The position numbers and the translations under genes were made by a program. This document shows positions 34,874 to 45,170 of a stretch of 64,000 nucleotides of DNA, one piece after another. Numbering within the stretch: position 1 is the first letter of the stretch; each line of letters starts with the position of its first letter. Source of the stretch: Opitutia bacterium (GTDB taxonomy: Bacteria > Verrucomicrobiota > Verrucomicrobiia > Opitutales > T3Sed10-336); NCBI GenBank assembly GCA_050506795.1, contig JBJHCF010000009.1:1-64000 (forward strand), written 5' to 3'. Below the pieces are notes generated by a model. The model made no database searches. It was not told where the DNA came from and saw only the letters and a program-made list of their open reading frames with translations.

Positions 34874-34976
34874 GCCAGGGAACAGCCGAGCCGGAAGCGA
34901 AACCACCGATGCGTCGGGTGAATAATTGACTTGGCGGCCTTCAGGGATTTCACTCGTTGCCGAAGAAGGTAATCCC

Positions 34977-37900
34977 ATGTTTGAAAAACGATTCCGCATA
35001 ACCCCGTGCCTGCTGCTGCTCGCAGGGGCCGTGTCTCCGTTATTCGCCGGTTCCCTCGCCTGGACGTGGCATCAGCCGCTGCCGCAGGGGAATTCACTCA
35101 CCACGCTGGCAGCGGGGGATGATTTTCTCATCGCCGCGGGATTACAGGGAACCGTTCTACGTTCCGAGAACGGCGAGAACTGGGAGCACATCGACACGGG
35201 CCCGGACGAAACGTTCTTTTCGTCCGCCTACGGCGACGGTCGCATTCTGCTGGGCGGCAACGGGGTGATCCTTTCCACTCAGGACGGCATTACCTGGACC
35301 GAAGTACTCGACACGGACGGCGTCATCGTGCAGGGCATCGCCTACGGCGAGGGAACCTGGGTGGCCGTCGGACGGTACTTTAACCAGGAGGAATCAAGAA
35401 CCGACAGCACGGTTTTCCGTTCCTTCGACGGTGTTGAATGGGAGCGACATGACTTCGAAGCGGGAGAGAACTTTTTCGTCCGTGACGTCGCCTTCGGCGC
35501 CGGCGACCGATTCGTGCTGACCGGCAGTCCGCCGGGTGCGTTGAGCAGCAGCGTGCTCGTATCCACGAACTCCGGCCAATCCTGGACACCGGCAAACGAT
35601 CCCCTTGAGTTCGCGGGTCAGTCGTTGACCTGGAACGGAGCAAACTTCGCCGTCGCGGGCGCCAACGGCGGCGTGGCCTTTTCGAGCGATGGGTTGCAGT
35701 GGGAAACGCGAAACGCGGACAGCCCGATGGCGTTGCGCCATATTCTTTACGCGGACGGACTCTGGGTGGCGGCCGGGCTCTCGTTTCAAGGAAACCGGGA
35801 ACCGGGGCTTCTCTATTCGACCGACGGAGTCGAGTGGGAAGAAACAGTTCTGCCCTATGCCAACAGCACCCCAACCGCGATCCTCCATTTCGCCGGCCAG
35901 TTCCTGACGGTCGGCCTCGATGGCGCCACCCTCAAAGGGAATCACCCGGAGAACCTGCAACCGGTCGCCAATGGCCTTCGCCGCCCCCTGAGCGGCATTG
36001 CCCACAACGGCGCCAGGTATGTCGCGGTCGGCGGACCGCCCCCACCGGAAACGCGCTTTTCCACCAATCCGATTCCCGGCAACACCATTGGAGGCGAGCA
36101 GACCATCCTCACATCCACGGACCTCCAGACCTGGACCGCGCTTGAAACCGCCAGTGACGAGCCCCTTTTCAGCATCACCTACGGCAATGGACGTTTCGTG
36201 GCGGTGGGAAACAACGGCACGGTCCTGACCTCGGACGACGGACTGGAATGGACCGCGCGCGATTCCGGCACCGAAAGCAACCTCACGGGCGTGGCTTACG
36301 GCAACGGATATTTTGTGGCGGTGGGACGCAACCTCTCCTATATCGGTATTTCCCCTGACGGCATTAACTGGACGGAACCCGACCATGTCCCGGCCATCAC
36401 CGAAGGTTTGTCCGATGTTGTTTTCGCCGACGGACGTTTTGTTGCGGTCGGATCAACGAGGGACGGCGTATTGCATACGACGAACCCTTTGTCCTGGGAG
36501 CGCGTCTCGGGCTCGTTCGACGAGGCAATCCTGCTATCGGTAACGCACGGGGCCAACGGTTTTGTCGCCGCCGGGTTCACTTCCATTTCCTCAAACGCTC
36601 CGTTCGTCCTGTCCTCCCAAAACGGGATCGACTGGACACAGGAAACGATTGAGGGCGCTCTCCCGATTACCGCCGTCACCGCTACGCCGGACGGTTACCT
36701 CGCCGCGGCCAGCTTTTTCGATTTCAGTTTCGGAAACACCGCGTTCCATACTTCGACGGACGGCCAGGTGTGGACTGAAGTCCCCGCATTCCCGCGTCCC
36801 CGGTTGATCTGGGACTTCGTGGTCACCGGCGACGGCGCCGTGGGAGTCGGCGACGGAGGCTCCATCGTGTCCACCTCCTTCACCGATCCCATCATTGAAC
36901 AACACCCCCAATCCCTTTCAGCCTTTTCGGGTGAAACCGTCGAGTTTACCGTGGCCGCAAGTGATCCCCTTGGCGGCGAGCTTGCCTACCAGTGGCTCTT
37001 TGAAGGAGACGCGATCGTATCCGATACCCGCATCAGCGGAACCGAATCAAACACGTTGCGTATCGAAAATGTCCATCCGGACGACGCGGGAGAGTACCGG
37101 GTGGTGGTCGGCAACGCGCAGGGAACGGTCACCAGCCAGGCAGCTTTGCTCACGGTGCAGGCCCTGCTCCGGGTCAGCCTCGATTTCGACGAAAACACGC
37201 CGGGATGGGGGGTCACGCGTTTTGACTCCGTACAGGAAGCGATCGACGCCGCACCGGCGGACGAGGCCTCCACCCTTGTGGTCGAACCGGGCGTCTATTT
37301 CGAAAATCTTCGCCTCCACGGCAAGCCCATCACCTTAACCGGCACCGACCCGCGGAATGCGGAGATCGTGGCTTCGACCGTTCTCGACGGCTCGGCGCAG
37401 GCGGACAGCGTGATTGCCATCATTGACGGTGAGGACAACCGCACCCGGATCCGCGGATTCACCATCCGAAACGGAACTCCTTCCGGGTTCAACCTTCGCG
37501 GCGGAGGGATTCGCATCGAGCATAGCACCCCCGTTATCGAGGACAACCGCATCCTGACGAACGCCGGCGGCGACGGGAGCGCAGGGGGCGGTATCTTCGC
37601 CATGGGCACCAATCTCCCCGACTCCGAATTCCTAATCATTCGCCGAAACGAAATCCGGGACAATACCGCCGAAATCGGCGGTGGCATTTTCCTGGTTCAC
37701 CGGTACGTAAAAGTATCTGAGAACCTGATACTCGACAACAGCGCCTACCATGAAGGAGGGGGGATATTCGCCGCCGAAATCCAAGCCGGACGCGGTTACC
37801 TCACCCAAACCGCGATTTTTGTCGAGCACTGCGTCCTGCACGGCAACCGGGCGGCCAACAACCCCGCGGCCGTCCTGCAACGGTTTGGCGAGAGTGATTT

Positions 37901-39053
37901 CGTTAATAACATCGTCGCCGAAAACCGGGCGATCGCCGCTCTTGACCCCTTGGCGCGTCCCTACGGAGCCTATCAGACCGTGATGACCGAAGGCAACTTC
38001 AGCGTGCGCTACAACAATTTCTGGCAAAACGCAGTGGAAGATCGCGGCGCGGAAAACCTTCCCTTTGGCCAGGACGGAAACATCGCCTTTTCCCCCTTGT
38101 TCGCCGACCCGGAGAATTTTAATTTCCGGCTGCGTTCGCAAGCCGGGCGCTGGGATCCAGCGATTGAGGATTGGATCATCGACGTCGAACACAGCCCGCT
38201 CATCGCCGCCGGAGCGCCGAACACCGACGGTTCCCGGCCCAACCTGGGAGCCTACGGGCTTTCCGAAACCGCCAGTCTGGCGCCGGAACAGAGCGTCGTC
38301 TCGATCGCCGCGGTCTCCCCCGGCGACCTGGCCCGGTCGCAGGAGTTGCCTTTGCAGGTGGTGCTGGGACGAACGGGCTCCCTGGACGAGGCGCTTGCAT
38401 TCGAGTTGAGCGCCGGCGGCGACGCCGAAGCGGGAATTGATTTCACCGAGGAAACTCTCCCTGCCGGATTCTCACCCGGCCAGGCCGCACTGACGTTTGA
38501 AATCGCGCCTCTGCCGATCGAATCCGTACGCGGGCATCGCCAACGCATTTATTCACTTGAACCTTCCGAAGCCTTCCTGCCGGGAAATGAGAACACCGCC
38601 ATCATCAACCTCTGGGATCACCCCTACCATGACTGGGTGGCGACGCACTTCTCGCCCGGCGAATGGGAAGACCCGCAACGGGTCGGACCCGAGGCCACGC
38701 CCGGCCAGACCGGATTGACCAACCTCCACCGGGCAGCCTTTGCCATCGGGTTAGAGCCATCACAGAGGGATCGGCTGCCACAGGTGTCCGAGGTCGGGGA
38801 ATCCGTTGGAGAAGACGCCATCAGAAAGATTCGTATCCAGTTCACCCGTCCGGCCCCCCACAACGGTTTCGAATACTCGCTCGAAGCCGCCGAGTCCCTC
38901 CCCCATTGGAGCCCGGCCGAACCGCTGACGGTTACCGTGGAACCGCTGGAAGCGGAGAACGCGGAACGCGTCACCTGGGAGTACGAAAGCTCCAGCCAGT
39001 CTTTTTTCCGAATCCGCACTCGATCGACGGGAAACCTGTACCTGTTTCCATAG
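34977..39053 (+). CDS. Large secreted multidomain protein (BNR-like propeller repeats, Ig domain, beta-helix, C-terminal domain)
   Basis: Signal peptide; repeated YGNGxFVAVG...SxDGxxW; QHPQS..YQW..DAGEY Ig; GGGI beta-helix repeats; terminal FFRIR. Confidence 0.8.
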   Translation: MFEKRFRITPCLLLLAGAVSPLFAGSLAWTWHQPLPQGNSLTTLAAGDDFLIAAGLQGTVLRSENGENWEHIDTGPDETFFSSAYGDGRILLGGNGVILSTQDGITWTEVLDTDGVIVQGIAYGEGTWVAVGRYFNQEESRTDSTVFRSFDGVEWERHDFEAGENFFVRDVAFGAGDRFVLTGSPPGALSSSVLVSTNSGQSWTPANDPLEFAGQSLTWNGANFAVAGANGGVAFSSDGLQWETRNADSPMALRHILYADGLWVAAGLSFQGNREPGLLYSTDGVEWEETVLPYANSTPTAILHFAGQFLTVGLDGATLKGNHPENLQPVANGLRRPLSGIAHNGARYVAVGGPPPPETRFSTNPIPGNTIGGEQTILTSTDLQTWTALETASDEPLFSITYGNGRFVAVGNNGTVLTSDDGLEWTARDSGTESNLTGVAYGNGYFVAVGRNLSYIGISPDGINWTEPDHVPAITEGLSDVVFADGRFVAVGSTRDGVLHTTNPLSWERVSGSFDEAILLSVTHGANGFVAAGFTSISSNAPFVLSSQNGIDWTQETIEGALPITAVTATPDGYLAAASFFDFSFGNTAFHTSTDGQVWTEVPAFPRPRLIWDFVVTGDGAVGVGDGGSIVSTSFTDPIIEQHPQSLSAFSGETVEFTVAASDPLGGELAYQWLFEGDAIVSDTRISGTESNTLRIENVHPDDAGEYRVVVGNAQGTVTSQAALLTVQALLRVSLDFDENTPGWGVTRFDSVQEAIDAAPADEASTLVVEPGVYFENLRLHGKPITLTGTDPRNAEIVASTVLDGSAQADSVIAIIDGEDNRTRIRGFTIRNGTPSGFNLRGGGIRIEHSTPVIEDNRILTNAGGDGSAGGGIFAMGTNLPDSEFLIIRRNEIRDNTAEIGGGIFLVHRYVKVSENLILDNSAYHEGGGIFAAEIQAGRGYLTQTAIFVEHCVLHGNRAANNPAAVLQRFGESDFVNNIVAENRAIAALDPLARPYGAYQTVMTEGNFSVRYNNFWQNAVEDRGAENLPFGQDGNIAFSPLFADPENFNFRLRSQAGRWDPAIEDWIIDVEHSPLIAAGAPNTDGSRPNLGAYGLSETASLAPEQSVVSIAAVSPGDLARSQELPLQVVLGRTGSLDEALAFELSAGGDAEAGIDFTEETLPAGFSPGQAALTFEIAPLPIESVRGHRQRIYSLEPSEAFLPGNENTAIINLWDHPYHDWVATHFSPGEWEDPQRVGPEATPGQTGLTNLHRAAFAIGLEPSQRDRLPQVSEVGESVGEDAIRKIRIQFTRPAPHNGFEYSLEAAESLPHWSPAEPLTVTVEPLEAENAERVTWEYESSSQSFFRIRTRSTGNLYLFP

Positions 39054-39910: not shown

Positions 39911-40939
39911 TCATTTCTCCGGATTGCCGCATTGTATCAGAATTTTCATGACATCTCCGCCGGTCGACATCAAATCAAGCCCTTTCTTGATATCCTCCAG
40001 GGAATAGATGTCGCTGATCAGACGATCGAGGGGCAAATCACCCGAGGCCGCGAGCTCGATGGCGCGATCGAAATCCCGGTTTTCGTAAACGCGCGCGCCG
40101 CACAAGCGCAACTCACGCCAGAAAAATTGAAAGAGGTCGATCTCCGGCGGTCGGGCGAAAATCCCCACCGCCACAATCAATCCGCGAGCCTTGGGCAAAC
40201 GGGTCATCATTTCGGCCCCGGAAGGATGACCGGTCACTTCGAAAACCACATCGGCGCCGGCGCCCTCGGACAACTCCTCCACCAGCGCCGGCAAATCGAC
40301 CGCCCGGGGGTCAACAGCCTCCAGTCCGAGCGCTTCCAGGTGTTGTACCCGGTAGGGGTTGATTTCCGACACGATCACCCGCGCCCCGTCCCGCCGCGCC
40401 ACCAGGGCAATCAGCGTTCCGATGGGACCGCCCCCCAGGACCACGGCGAGGTCGTTTGACGCCAACTCACCCAAACGAACATCGTGACAGGCCACCGCGA
40501 GGGGCTCGATGAGCGCGGCGCGGGAAAGCGACAAGGCCGCGGGCACCTTCCGCGCGGTGTGCGCCGGGACGACCCAGCGCTCCTGAAACGCGCCCGGAGT
40601 GTCGATACCGAGAAAACGCAGGTTTTCGCAAATATGATCGTGTCCCGCGCGGCAGGTCGGGCATTCGCCGCAGGGGTCAAGCGGCATTACGGTGACCCGA
40701 TCCCCGGCCGCGAAATCGCCGACCCCGTCGCCAACCGTACGCACCACCCCCGACATTTCATGCCCCATCACCTGCGCCGCCGCCACCCGCCAGTCCATTT
40801 TACCGTGGTAGATTCCGACGTCGGTACCGCAGATGCCGCAATAAGCCACTTCGATCTCGATTTCTCCGGGTCCGGGCGCAGCCGGAGCGGTATCCCCGAT
40901 TCTAATGACGTGGTTTCGTTCGTAATAAGCGGCTTTCAT
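39911..40939 (-). CDS. Zinc-binding alcohol/sugar-acid dehydrogenase (MDR)
   Basis: GICGTD, GHE, CGECPTC..HIC, EPLAVACH, GGGPIG. Confidence 0.88.
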   Translation of the reverse strand: MKAAYYERNHVIRIGDTAPAAPGPGEIEIEVAYCGICGTDVGIYHGKMDWRVAAAQVMGHEMSGVVRTVGDGVGDFAAGDRVTVMPLDPCGECPTCRAGHDHICENLRFLGIDTPGAFQERWVVPAHTARKVPAALSLSRAALIEPLAVACHDVRLGELASNDLAVVLGGGPIGTLIALVARRDGARVIVSEINPYRVQHLEALGLEAVDPRAVDLPALVEELSEGAGADVVFEVTGHPSGAEMMTRLPKARGLIVAVGIFARPPEIDLFQFFWRELRLCGARVYENRDFDRAIELAASGDLPLDRLISDIYSLEDIKKGLDLMSTGGDVMKILIQCGNPEK

Positions 40940-41196
40940 GGCAGGTCGATGGTAATCAAAGAAAAAGGACCCGGCAAACTCAAAACCGTCGAAGAAGCCA
41001 CCCGGGGATTTTTATTCGGCCTCTGAAGGCCGCACGAAAAACGTTTGAGATTCCTCGCTGAGAAATGCGGGGCGCAGCTCGGTCACACTCATAAGTGCGG
41101 CAAATTGTCGGTATTTCCTTACCTTATAAGAACAGCCTTGCAAACGGCTCGCATAGCGTCTAAGAACAATCCGCAATGTAACCGAAGGTTTACGCT

Positions 41197-41757
41197 ATGC
41201 GATACAATACACCCACTATAATCACGGTACTCTTCGCCTTTGTTTTTGGCTCGATCGCGCCAGCGATCGCGGCTTACGACGCGTTTCTCAAAATCGAAGG
41301 TGTGGAGGGCGAATCAGCCGACAAAGATCACGGAGGATGGATCGATATCGAATCGTTTTCCTGGGGAATGAACCACCCCGCCTCCACCAGTGGTGGCGGC
41401 GGAGCCGGCAAAGCCAATTTCATGGAACTCGACCTGGGCAAACATCTCGACAAGGCCACGCCGCTGCTGATGCTCAGGAGCGCGGAGGGTCGACACATTC
41501 CGGAAGCGCACCTGGTTCTCCGCAAGCAGGGGGAATCCGGTCACGTTTTCTTCGAGATTGAATTGAAGAATGTGTTTGTCACCAGTGTCGGCATTCAAGG
41601 CGAGGCCGGCGACACGGTGCCCAGCGAAACCCTTTCGCTCAACTACGAGGAGATTAAAATCACCTACACGCCACAACGCGCGGATGGTGGCCCCGAGGAA
41701 CCGGTTTCCGCCGGATGGAACGTGGCGGAGAACCGGCGGGTTGATACCGATTCATGA
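41197..41757 (+). CDS. hcp: Hcp (T6SS tube protein) homologue with N-terminal signal peptide
   Basis: AYDAFLKIEGVEGES..H.GWIDIESFSWG, DKATPLL, ETLSLNYEEIKITY, GWNV; preceded by a 25-aa hydrophobic leader ending AIA. Confidence 0.88.
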   Translation: MRYNTPTIITVLFAFVFGSIAPAIAAYDAFLKIEGVEGESADKDHGGWIDIESFSWGMNHPASTSGGGGAGKANFMELDLGKHLDKATPLLMLRSAEGRHIPEAHLVLRKQGESGHVFFEIELKNVFVTSVGIQGEAGDTVPSETLSLNYEEIKITYTPQRADGGPEEPVSAGWNVAENRRVDTDS

Positions 41758-42581
41758 ACGAAAAGGCCATGCGCTGGCAATTACTGCTGCCGACCGTATT
41801 CGCGCTGTGGCTGACGTGCTTGAGCGCGCCGGCGGCGTACGACGCCTTTCTCAAAATCGACGGCATTGACGGCGGATCGGAAGTCGACGGCCGCGAGGGA
41901 TGGATTGACCTGTTTTCGGTTGCCCAGGGAATGAGCCGATCCATGAGCCTCGTTGCCAGGGACGGCGCTTCCAAACCGGAATTTGACGAGTTATGGCTCG
42001 CAAAACCGGTGGACAAAGCCACTCCACTGCTGATCGAGGCCTGCGCCGCAGGTAAACATTATCCCGAAGCCATACTCGATCTTGTCCGCGCGGATTCCGC
42101 CGCCACCCGTTTCTTCCGGGTACGGCTGGAAGACGTTTTTATCTCCCGGACGGAGATTCAGGGAAACGCATCCGATGGCCACACCCTGGAAAGCATCGGG
42201 CTGACCTATGGCTACCTGGAATGGTCCTATGTGGAATTCGATCTCACGGGCCAGGAAGTCGCGGAGCACCTGGCCTACTGGAATCTCCTGGAGAACCTGG
42301 GCGGCAGCTCGGTCATTCCCGCAAACGGCGGCAGTCCCACCGATCCGCATGATGGGTTCCGCCGCGGGGTCGCCTTTAACCTGTCGGGCCAGACCGGCGC
42401 CGGCACTTTGAGCTGGACCAGCGAAAGCGGCAAAACCTACGGAATCTACTACAGCCCCGACCTGAACGAACCGTTCGACACATTGGTGAAGACCGTACCC
42501 TCCGAAGGCGATGACACCACCTCCACAACGGTCGATCTGGTCGGCAGCCGGGGATTCTTCATCATTCGGGAAATCGATTAA
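41754..42581 (+). CDS. hcp: Second signal-peptide-bearing Hcp homologue with a C-terminal extension domain
   Basis: AYDAFLKIDGIDG, GWID, DKATPLL, ESIGLTYG, YWNL; leader ends APA; about 90-aa extension; ATGA overlap with the first hcp. Confidence 0.85.
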   Translation: MNEKAMRWQLLLPTVFALWLTCLSAPAAYDAFLKIDGIDGGSEVDGREGWIDLFSVAQGMSRSMSLVARDGASKPEFDELWLAKPVDKATPLLIEACAAGKHYPEAILDLVRADSAATRFFRVRLEDVFISRTEIQGNASDGHTLESIGLTYGYLEWSYVEFDLTGQEVAEHLAYWNLLENLGGSSVIPANGGSPTDPHDGFRRGVAFNLSGQTGAGTLSWTSESGKTYGIYYSPDLNEPFDTLVKTVPSEGDDTTSTTVDLVGSRGFFIIREID

Positions 42582-42630
42582 CCGAACACGATCAGCTTAG
42601 CCATATCGAATTCCCAACGGCTCTTCACCC

Positions 42631-42732
42631 GGAGGGCCATGCTCCCGTACGACCGGATTCGCCGGGAACGCGGGCATCCTGCCCGCACCGGCGGCGCGGG
42701 AGCGCCGCCCTCCACGCTGGAGGCCATGCTCC
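42631..42732. repeat. REP-like palindromic repeat (empty group II intron target)
   Basis: GGAGGGCCATGCTCCCG...GGGAGCGCCGCCCTCC; 42669-42712 is identical to the reverse complement of 57638-57681. Confidence 0.85.
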
Positions 42733-42849
42733 TGCCTGGCCGTAATCGTCCAGGACGGACGTCGTGACCCGTTCCCTTCGCCCCCCAACGGGCCCCCTCC
42801 GGAACGACCGCTTTCACAGATCAACCCGATATCCAGTCGGGAATTGAAG

Positions 42850-43932
42850 TCATTCCTGGATGTTCTCCAAGGCGAAGCACGCCGCCATATCCGAGGCCAG
42901 GCCGGCGACATCGTCGGGAGAGGTATCCCATGAGCACATGAAGCGGCAAAGCCCCGGTCCGTCCTCGCCGCCGCGGCCGATGAAATCGTAAAACCCCCAG
43001 CCTTTCGCACGCAGCGCGGCAGCGGTTTCGGCGGGAAGGTGCAGGAATACGGCGTTGGCCTGAACCGGGAAGGCCGGTGCAAGACCCGGAATTTCGGAAA
43101 TCCCTCGGGCCAGTTCCGCTGCCATTGCGTTGGCGTGCGCGGCGTGTCGCAGCCAGGCGCCGTTTTCCAAAATTCCCGCCCAGGGGGCGGCGAGGTAACG
43201 CATTTTGGATGCGAGTTGTCCGGCCTGCTTGCAGCGGTAATCGAACTCCCGGGCCAAATCCTTGCGGAAAAACACCACCGCCTCCCCCACCGCGAGACCG
43301 TTCTTGGCGCCGCCGAGACAGAGAACATCCACCCCGGCCTCCCAGGTGATCTCTCTGGGCGCCGCGCCCAGCGCCGCGATCGCATTGGCGAATCGGGCGC
43401 CGTCCATGTGCAGGCGCAGATCGAATTTCCGGCAGAGCTCGGCAATGGCCTGCAGTTCTTCCGGAGAATAGATCGTTCCCAGTTCGGTGGGCTGGGTGAC
43501 GCTGACCACGCGCGGTTTTGGATAATGGATGTCGGTACGGCGCCGCACCATGCGTTCGATGGCCGGAGGGAAGATGCGCCCGTTTTTTCCGGGAAGCAGA
43601 AGGAGCTTGGTGCCGTTGGTGAAAAATTCCGGCGCTCCGCATTCATCCGTTTCAATGTGCGCGGCGTCGTGACAGAGCACGCTGTGATAGGAGCGGCACA
43701 TGGAGGCGAGCGAAAGTGAATTGGCCGCCGTACCGTTGAAGGTGAAGAAGACATCGCAGTCGGTTTCAAAAACCTCGCGGATCAGGTCGGTGGCCTTTTG
43801 CGTCCACCGGTCATCTCCGTACCCGGGGACAAAACCCCGGTTGGCTCGCTCCATGGCCTCCCATGCCTCCGGGCAAATCCCCGCGCAATTGTCGCTGGCA
43901 AAGGTGTAACGGGTTGAATCGGATGCAGGCAT
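42850..43932 (-). CDS. ltaE: Low-specificity L-threonine aldolase
   Basis: FASDN, YGDD, NGTAAN, DECGAPEF, HMDGARFANA, GQLASKMRY. Confidence 0.9.
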   Translation of the reverse strand: MPASDSTRYTFASDNCAGICPEAWEAMERANRGFVPGYGDDRWTQKATDLIREVFETDCDVFFTFNGTAANSLSLASMCRSYHSVLCHDAAHIETDECGAPEFFTNGTKLLLLPGKNGRIFPPAIERMVRRRTDIHYPKPRVVSVTQPTELGTIYSPEELQAIAELCRKFDLRLHMDGARFANAIAALGAAPREITWEAGVDVLCLGGAKNGLAVGEAVVFFRKDLAREFDYRCKQAGQLASKMRYLAAPWAGILENGAWLRHAAHANAMAAELARGISEIPGLAPAFPVQANAVFLHLPAETAAALRAKGWGFYDFIGRGGEDGPGLCRFMCSWDTSPDDVAGLASDMAACFALENIQE

Positions 43933-44276
43933 AGCAGCAATAAAAGCACTATCTCTGATGGGATTGCGGCTGACGTGCAAGCGTTTATGCCAACGACGGC
44001 GTTTCACCGCGTCCGACCGCCAACGGGTGCACACGATTGAACAGAAGCCGCGTAGCGTTCCACCGGAAATCGGCGGATAATGAGCGCTAATAAGAAAAGT
44101 TCCATCCGCGCGCATCACACCATCCGCACAACCACGTTTTTCCGGCATTATCCAACCTTCTCTCAGGCAGTTTCCACCTTCAGAGATCCCCCGATAACCT
44201 CGGTGGAATCCCGCCGCGATTTCTTATGGCTTACTATTGCTCTCGGGTGCAAACGCGTCTAGCGTTCATCGACGCG

Positions 44277-45170
44277 ATGGAGCGACGGCAGAAACTCTTT
44301 TTGGAGAAGCTCACGGCTTCCCGTATTTTTCAGGATTATAAACAGGCGTTTGAGTCGGGCACGGGGTTGCCGCTGGCGGTCACGTCCTCGCAATCCTGGG
44401 GTCTGCCCCACCGATTCGGGGAGAAGGAAAACCCGTTCTGCTCCCTCATGGCAAAGTCCAGCAAATCCTGCGCCGCCTGTCTGGAGGTGCAAAAACGTCT
44501 TTCGGACGAGTCGGAGCACGGCCCGGTGACCCTGACCTGCTTTGCCGGACTCTGTGATTCGGCGGTGCCCATCCGCATGGGTGAGGACCTGATCGGACTG
44601 CTGCAGACGGGGCAGGTATTGGTCGAAGCTCCCGACGACGCCGGATTCAACCGCATCACCCGCACCCTCATCCAATGGGGCATCGATGCCGACTTGAAAG
44701 ATCTGCGCGAAGCCTATTTCGCCACTCGCGTGCTCGAACCGGAACAGTATCGGTCGTTCGTGAACATGTTGCACATTTTCGCCGAACACCTGGCCCTGGT
44801 GGGGCACCAACTCGAGATTGCCGCAGAAAGCCGCGAAAGTCCGGTCATGCGCCGCGCAAGGGTCATTATCGAGGAAAAGCAGGCCGATGACATCACCTCG
44901 CGTGACGTGGCCAGGATGTTGAATACCAGCACCTTTTACTTCTGCAAACTGTTCAAAAAGGCCACCGGTCTGACCTTTACCGAATACCTGACCCGGGTAA
45001 GGGTGGAAAAGGCGAAGAATTTTCTGCTCAATCCCCATCTGCGCGTGAGCGAAATCGCCTACCAAGTGGGCTTCCGCTCATTATCCCAATTCAATCGCTC
45101 GTTTCGCAACCTCGTGGGCCAGACGCCTTCCGAGTACCGGGATGCGCGCGGGGTGTCGCCTTCGACCTGA
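44277..45170 (+). CDS. AraC-family regulator with PocR ligand-binding domain
   Basis: NPFC...C...CFAGL PocR cysteines; C-terminal AraC double HTH. Confidence 0.9.
   Translation: MERRQKLFLEKLTASRIFQDYKQAFESGTGLPLAVTSSQSWGLPHRFGEKENPFCSLMAKSSKSCAACLEVQKRLSDESEHGPVTLTCFAGLCDSAVPIRMGEDLIGLLQTGQVLVEAPDDAGFNRITRTLIQWGIDADLKDLREAYFATRVLEPEQYRSFVNMLHIFAEHLALVGHQLEIAAESRESPVMRRARVIIEEKQADDITSRDVARMLNTSTFYFCKLFKKATGLTFTEYLTRVRVEKAKNFLLNPHLRVSEIAYQVGFRSLSQFNRSFRNLVGQTPSEYRDARGVSPST

Follow-up and report, generated by a model that had tools for sequence, protein, structure and literature searches.

Two coupled Hcp-family genes of an Opitutia bacterium may encode exported proteins that act without a type VI secretion system

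Hcp proteins are treated as diagnostic type VI secretion system (T6SS) components, strictly cytoplasmic and loaded into a sheath. What, then, should be made of two adjacent Hcp-like genes whose products both begin with an apparent export signal? The question is raised by a 64,000-nucleotide stretch of DNA (hereafter the window) from contig JBJHCF010000009.1 of an Opitutia bacterium (assembly GCA_050506795.1; phylum Verrucomicrobiota), in which the two genes, here called gene 1 and gene 2, lie one directly after the other (Table 1). They seem to form a self-contained two-gene operon encoding Hcp-fold proteins that would act outside the cytoplasm without any T6SS, a reading to which we assign a probability of roughly 0.62.

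Both proteins are members of the Hcp family by sequence and fold. The Pfam profile PF05638 (T6SS_HCP), which has 129 positions and a curated cut-off of 23.5 bits, is matched from position 1 to position 129 by residues 30–157 of gene 1 (E 8.3e-34, 117.1 bits) and by residues 32–159 of gene 2 (E 1.6e-27, 96.7 bits). Gene 1 was placed on a solved structure by sequence; its closest is Pseudomonas aeruginosa Hcp1 (1y12), which aligns end to end from query residue 26 (E 5.3e-37), and its identity to T6SS Hcps is ∼45%. For gene 2 the fold was modeled with AlphaFold2 (AF2). The model has a mean predicted local distance difference test (pLDDT) value of 82.4, mostly above 85 over residues 29–189, and comprises a helix (residues 8–20) that stands apart from the Hcp domain (29–189), a disordered linker (197–211), and a beta-sandwich (215–274). 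In Foldseek comparisons it matches Hcp crystal structures at E ∼1e-12 with template modeling (TM) scores of 0.84–0.94, among them 7fcf_E (E 5e-13), 8yun (TM 0.94), and 1y12_B (TM 0.91). An earlier interpretation made from the letters of the window (hereafter the sequence-only reading) had recognized Hcp folds in both products of two coupled open reading frames (ORFs) with an ATGA overlap at 41754, and the full-profile matches, the coordinates, and the overlapping bases all agree with it.

The unusual feature of both proteins lies in front of the Hcp domain. Gene 1 opens with MRYNTPTIITVLFAFVFGSIAPAIA followed directly by AYDAF, and gene 2 opens with MNEKAMRWQLLLPTVFALWLTCLSAPA, again followed directly by AYDAF. 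Each leader has a basic n-region, a hydrophobic core of 15–16 residues, and an A-x-A c-region that abuts AYDAFLKI. These are the marks of a Sec/signal peptidase I signal (n-, h-, and c-regions, with small residues at –3 and –1), and judged by sequence both proteins would carry one; all leader calls in this work were made with a hydrophobicity threshold and by inspection. By eye, neither protein presents the lipoprotein lipobox [LVI][ASTVI][GAS]C, as gene 1 is free of cysteine and the WLTC of gene 2 does not fit the motif. A scan of the open frame of gene 1 for ATG, GTG, or TTG at or before the Hcp start gives a single codon, the ATG at 41197. Because this only start codon sits 5′ of the leader, the leader of gene 1 is no artifact of ORF extension, and the same arrangement holds for locus L035, for gene 1 of L046, for both genes of L047, and for the long gene of L039.

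Leaders of this type recur among homologues. A set of 123 database proteins (120 from the search plus three cluster members) includes 39 with an N-terminal hydrophobic extension, or 40 once the 5′-truncated P0003 is recoded. The closest homologue of gene 1, its orthologue P0002 (69% identity), is also leader-bearing, and the 71-kb contig that encodes it also encodes an orthologue of gene 2, P0114, with a leader of its own (MKSLIFIALALTVAGPAATA followed by AYDAY). When ORFs from fetched loci are added to the database proteins, 61 leader-bearing Hcps are available for comparison. In alignments, Ala25 of gene 1 takes the place of the canonical initiator Met, and the residue at this place is Ala in 44 and Gly in seven of the 61 (a small residue in 51/61); 40/61 have A, S, T, V, or G at –3, and a lipobox-like motif appears in only two. 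Such precision of the junction across homologues would be hard to explain unless the cleavage site were used. Because Ala or Gly occupies the position of the initiator Met, cleavage would yield the usual N-terminus of a Met-processed Hcp.

Much of this had been anticipated. The sequence-only reading described leaders ending in AxA before AYDAFLK, noted that gene 1 lacks a start codon near AYDAF, proposed that cleavage would leave the N-terminus of an ordinary Hcp, and named lack of conservation of the leaders as evidence that would count against it. The leaders can be read in both proteins and are conserved in homologues, the frame scan gives the same result for gene 1, and the residue at the initiator Met position fits the proposed N-terminus. 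Some homologues (P0021, P0022, P0099, P0080, P0025, P0059, and P0014) depart from the compact design in having 15–25 non-hydrophobic residues between the core and a junction of the form ..AA followed by (A/S)VDYF. In these longer proteins the spacer might represent a propeptide, or it might reflect a second step of processing.

A further signature concerns cysteine. The conserved Cys of the LMLxCAxG motif is present in 95/105 leaderless versus 20/61 leader-bearing domains, and domains free of any cysteine make up 3/105 of the former versus 31/61 of the latter; gene 1 has none. Loss of an unpaired cysteine would be expected upon a move to an oxidizing compartment.

The source assembly (4.94 Mb in 82 contigs, 97.8% complete) was searched as a whole for other T6SS components. 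No match was found in it to TssC (PF05943), TssB (PF05591), Phage_GPD/VgrG (PF05954), TssF (PF05947), TssK (PF05936), Phage_sheath_1 (PF04984), or PAAR (PF05488), and a positive control genome scored in the search for each family. Genes 1 and 2 are the sole Hcp matches in the assembly. The pair therefore does not qualify as functional T6SS tube subunits, because leaders are present and genes for sheath, baseplate, and spike were not found in the assembly. The sequence-only reading had reported that the 64 kb contain no T6SS genes and had pointed to the rest of the genome as the place where a complete system might reside. Its statement now holds genome-wide for TssB, TssC, TssF, TssK, VgrG, and PAAR, with ClpV not searched, and the core genes sought elsewhere in the assembly were not found.

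The same separation of leaders from T6SS genes is seen across genomes. Because the genomes are related, the leader/TssC counts that follow are not independent trials: among 401 genomes of Verrucomicrobiota, Hcp occurs in 30 and TssC in 19, all 13 genomes with Hcp and no TssC have Hcps with hydrophobic leaders, and in all 17 genomes with both the best Hcp is leaderless and starts MA.D. The 13 span at least 12 family codes. In the 17, the best Hcp adjoins TssC wherever both coordinates are listed, and two other genomes with TssC have no Hcp match. In Planctomycetota (301 genomes, Hcp in 70 and TssC in 67), seven of the 10 genomes with Hcp and no TssC are leader-bearing and three were not judged, because a contig end truncates the N-terminus (G421), because a weak match was missed by the profile (G542), or because the case is unclear (G586). 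In the 60 Planctomycetota genomes with both, the best Hcp is leaderless in 30/30 loci examined. A separate observation from Verrucomicrobiota is a locus, L028 (G159:C2:308561-310994), in which TssC is followed directly downstream by a tandem array of four leaderless Hcp paralogues, an arrangement that recalls the multi-Hcp loci of Bacteroidota.

The pair itself is also conserved. The same short-then-long tandem of leader-bearing Hcps is found in 10 of the 13 Verrucomicrobiota genomes that have Hcp and no TssC, representing at least nine families. In the nine pairs other than that of the window, the long gene starts between 4 nt before and 59 nt after the stop of the short gene, as derived by hand from the coordinates and the chosen starts. 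Neighbors differ from locus to locus among these nine (GH2, RecD2, an XPD-like helicase, PPDK, HtpG, RlmN, and others), and because the flanking genes are different in every case the module appears to be self-contained. The long partner always carries a C-terminal extension, of ∼90 to ∼1,150 residues, in proteins of 275–1,304 residues. Long partners end in a common pattern of ∼80 residues (..LSWNS.PG+.Y.v....L...F...TVTA....T..V....gFFRV), which is clear in six of the nine others and weaker in L036, L037, and L039. The modules that Pfam recognizes ahead of this tail are Big_9, Cadherin, and He_PIG in L037 and TSP3_bac in L040, L043, and L045; all of these, TSP3 being a calcium-binding repeat, are typical extracellular modules. 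Three gene 2-like clusters in the ESM Atlas, with 90, 54, and 141 members, are mostly from Verrucomicrobiota and serve as a lead only. The long partner of L045 (1318-5229, plus strand, genome G299) is a protein of 1,304 residues in which ∼1,100 residues, almost free of Pfam matches, separate the Hcp domain from the tail; the matches are a weak one to Glucodextran_B and a single TSP3 repeat.

Short and long partners also differ within the Hcp domain. The extended loop that follows FSWG contains a GGG run in the short partner of 7/9 pairs and in the long partner of 0/9. Overall, this run is found in 43/50 short leader-bearing, 2/11 long leader-bearing, and 81/105 leaderless Hcps. One report describes the Asp40-Arg56 loop of Burkholderia pseudomallei Hcp1 as contacting the adjacent ring, with mutation abolishing the stacking of dodecamers (PMC4650826). 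Given that short partners retain the loop, selection would seem still to act on contact between rings or on another of the loop's functions. The placement of the tail on the gene 2 type and of the Gly-rich loop on the gene 1 type supports different roles for the two genes, so far as roles can be read from sequence. It had been suggested that gene 1 is the main subunit and gene 2 an anchor or cap, and of this proposal it is the difference in roles that gains from the loop asymmetry and the tail.

The tail of gene 2 was examined separately. Folded alone, it gives a five-strand beta-sandwich (pLDDT 79.6) with no fold match in the PDB at E ≤ 0.001; its weak neighbors are lectin-like, carbohydrate-binding module (CBM)-like, and fn3-like, none of them significant. 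No Pfam family scores above its cut-off, fn3_SORL1 (E 0.0089) included, and toxin families are absent from the Pfam matches of gene 2 and of the nine other long partners. The PEP-CTERM family PF07589 is not among the Pfam matches of gene 2 at E ≤ 1, and the tail ends ..GFFIIREID. A search with the tail alone recovered nothing beyond the query and a pair of close orthologues (88% and 80%), and a profile of the tail run against its own genome returned itself (E 1.7e-28) plus six weak matches. Elsewhere in the window (34926-39053, plus strand) lies a gene for an exported-looking protein of 1375 aa, with I-set/Ig and disaggregatase-related matches. Its C-terminal module of ∼130 aa has at least nine other copies in the genome at E ≤ 0.001, which end large ORFs with open frames of up to 3215 aa. 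Profile–profile comparison of the gene 2 tail with this module gave a probability of 11% and an E of 0.0027, with ..Y.v..s.dL..W/F....FFR.R as the layout common to the two.

How might such a pair work? We propose that the two genes are co-translated by way of the ATGA coupling and that both products would be exported by Sec, with signal peptidase I cutting after Ala25 of gene 1 and Ala27 of gene 2. Each mature protein would then begin AYDAFLKI, as a Met-processed cytoplasmic Hcp does, and would come to lie in the periplasm or at the surface of this diderm organism. Both would fold as Hcp beta-barrels and oligomerize into Hcp-type rings. Gene 1 would furnish the bulk, stack-competent subunit, because it keeps the Gly-rich extended loop through which rings of T6SS Hcp1 touch one another. 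With that loop lost, and a flexible linker and beta-sandwich tail acquired, gene 2 would be a specialized partner, serving to tether or target the assembly within the envelope or at the surface.

These steps do not deserve equal confidence. Export through Sec with cleavage by signal peptidase I, together with independence from any T6SS, is highly probable; the sequence-only reading had proposed export, and comparison now adds support to it through the conservation of leaders, the geometry of the cleavage site, and the split with TssC. Formation of Hcp-type rings is probable, in view of the ∼45% identity to ring-forming Hcp1 and the preserved fold. Co-assembly of the two products is a reasonable prospect at somewhat under even odds, and is suggested by the coupling, the conserved tandem, and a precedent for heterohexamers described below; a complex prediction for mature gene 1 (residues 26–186) and the Hcp domain of gene 2 (residues 28–192), each with an alignment, scored 0.26, the mark being 0.32, and speaks neither for nor against binding. 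A role for gene 2 as tether or targeting subunit is tentative and is suggested by its architecture. The stacking of rings into tubes is doubtful. A still bolder and distinctly unlikely version holds that a phage-tail tube has become a sheath-less appendage of the envelope or surface. In this version, exported rings of gene 1 would be joined by their retained Gly-rich loops in a hollow fiber or conduit. Gene 2, being without the loop, would close off the stack and, by way of its linker and tail, attach it to the cell or to a target, with cadherin, Big_9, or TSP3 modules serving as the arms in other lineages.

The history of these proteins was approached with a tree of 124 Hcp domains (a quick IQ-TREE search over 159 columns), which omits the window's own duplicate and one half of the leaderless proteins from the database. 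Leader state clusters strongly on this tree, requiring 12 changes (11 after the recoding of P0003) versus a mean of 41.6 when shuffled. Gene 1 groups with other leader-bearing Hcps (97–99 support) and gene 2 only with its close orthologues; deeper claims from the tree are unsafe because many of its branches are long. A single origin of leader-bearing Hcps is ruled out as a simple reading, as at least four gains or losses are well supported. Two leader-bearing homologues have the source names Patescibacteria (P0021) and Dehalococcoidia, so the framing of the search around Planctomycetes, Verrucomicrobia, and Chlamydiae (PVC) bacteria in the sequence-only reading proves too narrow. The clusters of 10 homologues bear only the names “Hcp” or “TssD,” or none. 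A search of genome contigs with gene 1 found only three distant loci in Planctomycetota, at 32–36% identity; in L033 and L034 the match is limited to the Hcp domain (query residues 30–164), and both of their genomes have TssC. At least two leader-bearing subtypes can be told apart, an AYDAFLK type and an AEP.HV type. The second, divergent subtype, in which the leader is followed by AEP(L/I)HV.I, is seen at L048 (8127-8678, minus strand, genome G081) and at L041 (G327:C29). In G081 it occurs alongside a T6SS that looks complete and is equipped with a leaderless Hcp of its own.

Several other explanations of the pair deserve consideration. The exported proteins might be soluble, free Hcp rings that use the lumen to act as carriers, chaperones, or binding proteins, with a ligand-binding tail on gene 2 and with neither stacking nor any fixed structure. 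Free Hcp is described as forming hexameric rings, and Hcp as binding effectors in its pore (PMC8262886; PMC13035841). The cadherin, Big_9, and TSP3 modules of long partners are of a binding type, and the nonsignificant fold neighbors of the tail are lectin-, CBM-, and fn3-like. We nevertheless consider this account unlikely, as no conserved third gene that might encode a cargo accompanies the pair in the window or in the nine other loci scanned, and the stacking loop is kept in short partners about as often (43/50) as one sees in T6SS-type Hcps (81/105). A different account, which we judge improbable, makes each leader an uncleaved signal-anchor that tethers the Hcp domain to the inner membrane on its outer face, for example in a membrane-proximal ring or scaffold. 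Cleavage was called by sequence heuristics, AF2 builds a helix at residues 8–20 of gene 2, and the spacers of P0021, P0022, P0099, and P0080 between hydrophobic core and Hcp start would suit an anchor. However, h-regions of ∼15–16 residues are short for a stable transmembrane anchor, and the small residue at –1 falls exactly at the canonical Hcp start in 51/61 homologues, with a typical –3 residue in 40/61.

The leader-bearing Hcps might instead be a mixed set without common function, in which leaders were gained repeatedly and the pair in the window is peculiar to its lineage, as a scaffold for a surface antigen or adhesin might be. The changes of leader state that the tree demands, the existence of more than one subtype, and the wide range of extension lengths in long partners are what such a set would show. 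We judge this very improbable, as the short-then-long order, tail pattern, and loop asymmetry recur across the phylum, and even this account is compatible with export and with T6SS independence. Least of all do we favor the view that we are dealing with normal tube subunits of a T6SS, or with decaying relics. A T6SS would then lie in the unassembled ∼2% or be too divergent to detect, or else the system would have been lost and the leaders would be fortuitous. The assembly is indeed a draft, gene 1 shares ∼45% identity with T6SS Hcps, and TssC does occur in the phylum (19/401 genomes). Yet searches for seven independent families of core or sheath genes all found nothing, and the leader-bearing tandem is found in 10 genomes of at least nine families that all lack TssC. 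The frames are intact and the conserved leaders have a precise cleavage motif, and a Sec leader would take the protein out of the cytoplasm, where the sheath is assembled. Survival of this view is therefore extremely improbable.

Other observations weigh against the idea of a T6SS-independent, exported Hcp pair. Both proteins score below the cut-off of the NCBIfam TssD model TIGR03344 (56.6 and 51.3 bits for a cut-off of 58.9) and are for this reason somewhat atypical Hcps. In genome G081, which has TssC, a divergent Hcp with a leader is also encoded, apart from the T6SS; because both are present there, the absence of a T6SS is no requirement for a leader, and the split runs by gene and not by genome. 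The leader-bearing Hcps are not one clade, at least four changes being forced by well-supported branches, so one common function for all of them is an assumption. An in-frame TTG at Leu23 of gene 2, five codons before AYD, makes a leaderless form of that protein formally possible (the other in-frame start, an ATG at Met6, would retain the leader; the sequence-only reading mentions neither), and the short gene of G257 has no canonical start codon 5′ of its hydrophobic stretch. The contrasts in cysteine content and in leader versus TssC count related sequences, and a phylogenetically independent test of cysteine against leader is not significant, with only three well-supported pairs, in the expected direction. 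The Gly-rich loop equates with the Asp40-Arg56 loop of B. pseudomallei by alignment position only. Finally, the tail has no established homology to a sorting or anchoring domain, so that only architecture speaks for a tether role. The G257 gene merits separate mention. Its locus is L044 (G257:C13), where the sole start codon of the short Hcp is a TTG within the leader-like stretch, with no ATG, GTG, or TTG upstream, and it could have a non-canonical start codon or be a damaged gene.

Comparison with known systems helps to define what is distinctive about the pair. The nearest is Hcp1/TssD of P. aeruginosa (PA0085, 1y12), which shares the fold and family, and whose hallmark motifs DxFLKIxGVxGES and DKxSPxL are found in the pair, with GGGGAGK in gene 1 only. 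Canonical Hcp differs in being leaderless, cytoplasmic, and loaded into the TssBC sheath, whereas the pair has Sec-type leaders and falls below the TssD cut-off, and most of its leader-bearing relatives lack the conserved cysteine. The T6SS of Bacteroides fragilis offers a precedent for mixed rings: Hcp2 and Hcp3 form obligate heterohexamers in which one paralogue determines specificity (PMC13035841). There, too, two adjacent Hcp paralogues have different roles, but those proteins are cytoplasmic, belong to a T6SS, and carry effectors, and the present pair is predicted to be exported.

Hcp proteins with C-terminal extensions, known as “Hcp-ET,” resemble the gene 2 type in having an N-terminal Hcp domain and a variable C-terminal extension. 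They differ in that the gene 2 types have a beta-sandwich tail (with cadherin, Big_9, or TSP3 modules elsewhere), leaders, and no T6SS. Fusions of Hcp1 to C-terminal toxin domains are described in PMC3482391. The only trace of exported or surface Hcp domains that we found in print is in Howard et al. (2021; PMC8262886), who set aside those Hcp genes that carry a PEP-CTERM sorting signal before building an Hcp tree. A full-text search of the literature, with most subscription journals outside its coverage, found no paper on an Hcp that bears a signal peptide or that is exported independently of a T6SS. The present analysis adds the contrast between leader and TssC in two phyla, the geometry of the cleavage site, the cysteine signature, and the short/long tandem with its loop asymmetry.

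If the reading of an exported pair is true, then the Hcp ring, with its phage-tail-tube fold, has a second and so far uncharacterized role outside the cytoplasm. In T6SS surveys and annotation pipelines, the counting of “Hcp” genes would then mislabel a sizeable class, as 40/122 database homologues are leader-bearing (the window's own protein excluded). Should tubes also form, they would constitute a widespread and unrecognized extracellular nanotube system. An exported ring or tube that assembles itself with a defined bore would also be of interest in protein engineering, where Hcp1 already serves as a building block for nanotubes.

Table 1. Positions of the Hcp gene pair and its parts within the window
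Feature	Position	Strand	Remarks
Gene 1	41197..41757	+	ORF of 186 aa
Gene 2	41754..42581	+	ORF of 275 aa
ATGA overlap of gene 2 start and gene 1 stop	41754..41757	+	ATG 41754-41756, TGA 41755-41757; translational coupling
Possible Shine-Dalgarno sequence GAAGG	41184..41188	+	8 nt 5′ of the gene 1 ATG; by eye
Gene 1 leader, residues 1-25	41197..41271	+	n-region MRYNTP, h-region TIITVLFAFVFGSIA, c-region PAIA; predicted cut after Ala25
Gene 1 mature Hcp domain, residues 26-186, and stop codon	41272..41757	+	PF05638; loop SGGGGAGK; cysteine-free
Gene 2 leader, residues 1-27	41754..41834	+	n-region MNEKAMR, h-region WQLLLPTVFALWLTCL, c-region SAPA; predicted cut after Ala27
Gene 2 Hcp domain, residues 28 to ∼189	41835..42320	+	PF05638; SMSLVARDGASKPEF in place of the Gly-rich loop
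Gene 2 linker, residues ∼190-211	42321..42386	+	predicted disordered; AF2 pLDDT <50 over 197-211
Gene 2 C-terminal beta-sandwich tail, residues ∼212-275, and stop codon	42387..42581	+	..LSWTSESGKTYGIYYSPDL..GFFIIREID; AF2 strands 215-274

A promoter scan of 40900-42900 found no sigma-70-like site, and terminator-like matches in the same interval are within chance. Among public sequencing runs, no RNA data set is listed, and only one DNA metagenome, probably the source, contains most of the stretch. Upstream of the pair, on the opposite strand, are genes for a short-chain dehydrogenase/reductase (SDR) and a zinc alcohol dehydrogenase that are unrelated to it. Downstream are genes for a beta-eliminating lyase (42850-44148, minus strand) and then a regulator with a PocR sensor and AraC-type architecture (44226-45170, plus strand). 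With no evident tie to the Hcp pair, this regulator gene is divergent from the lyase gene.

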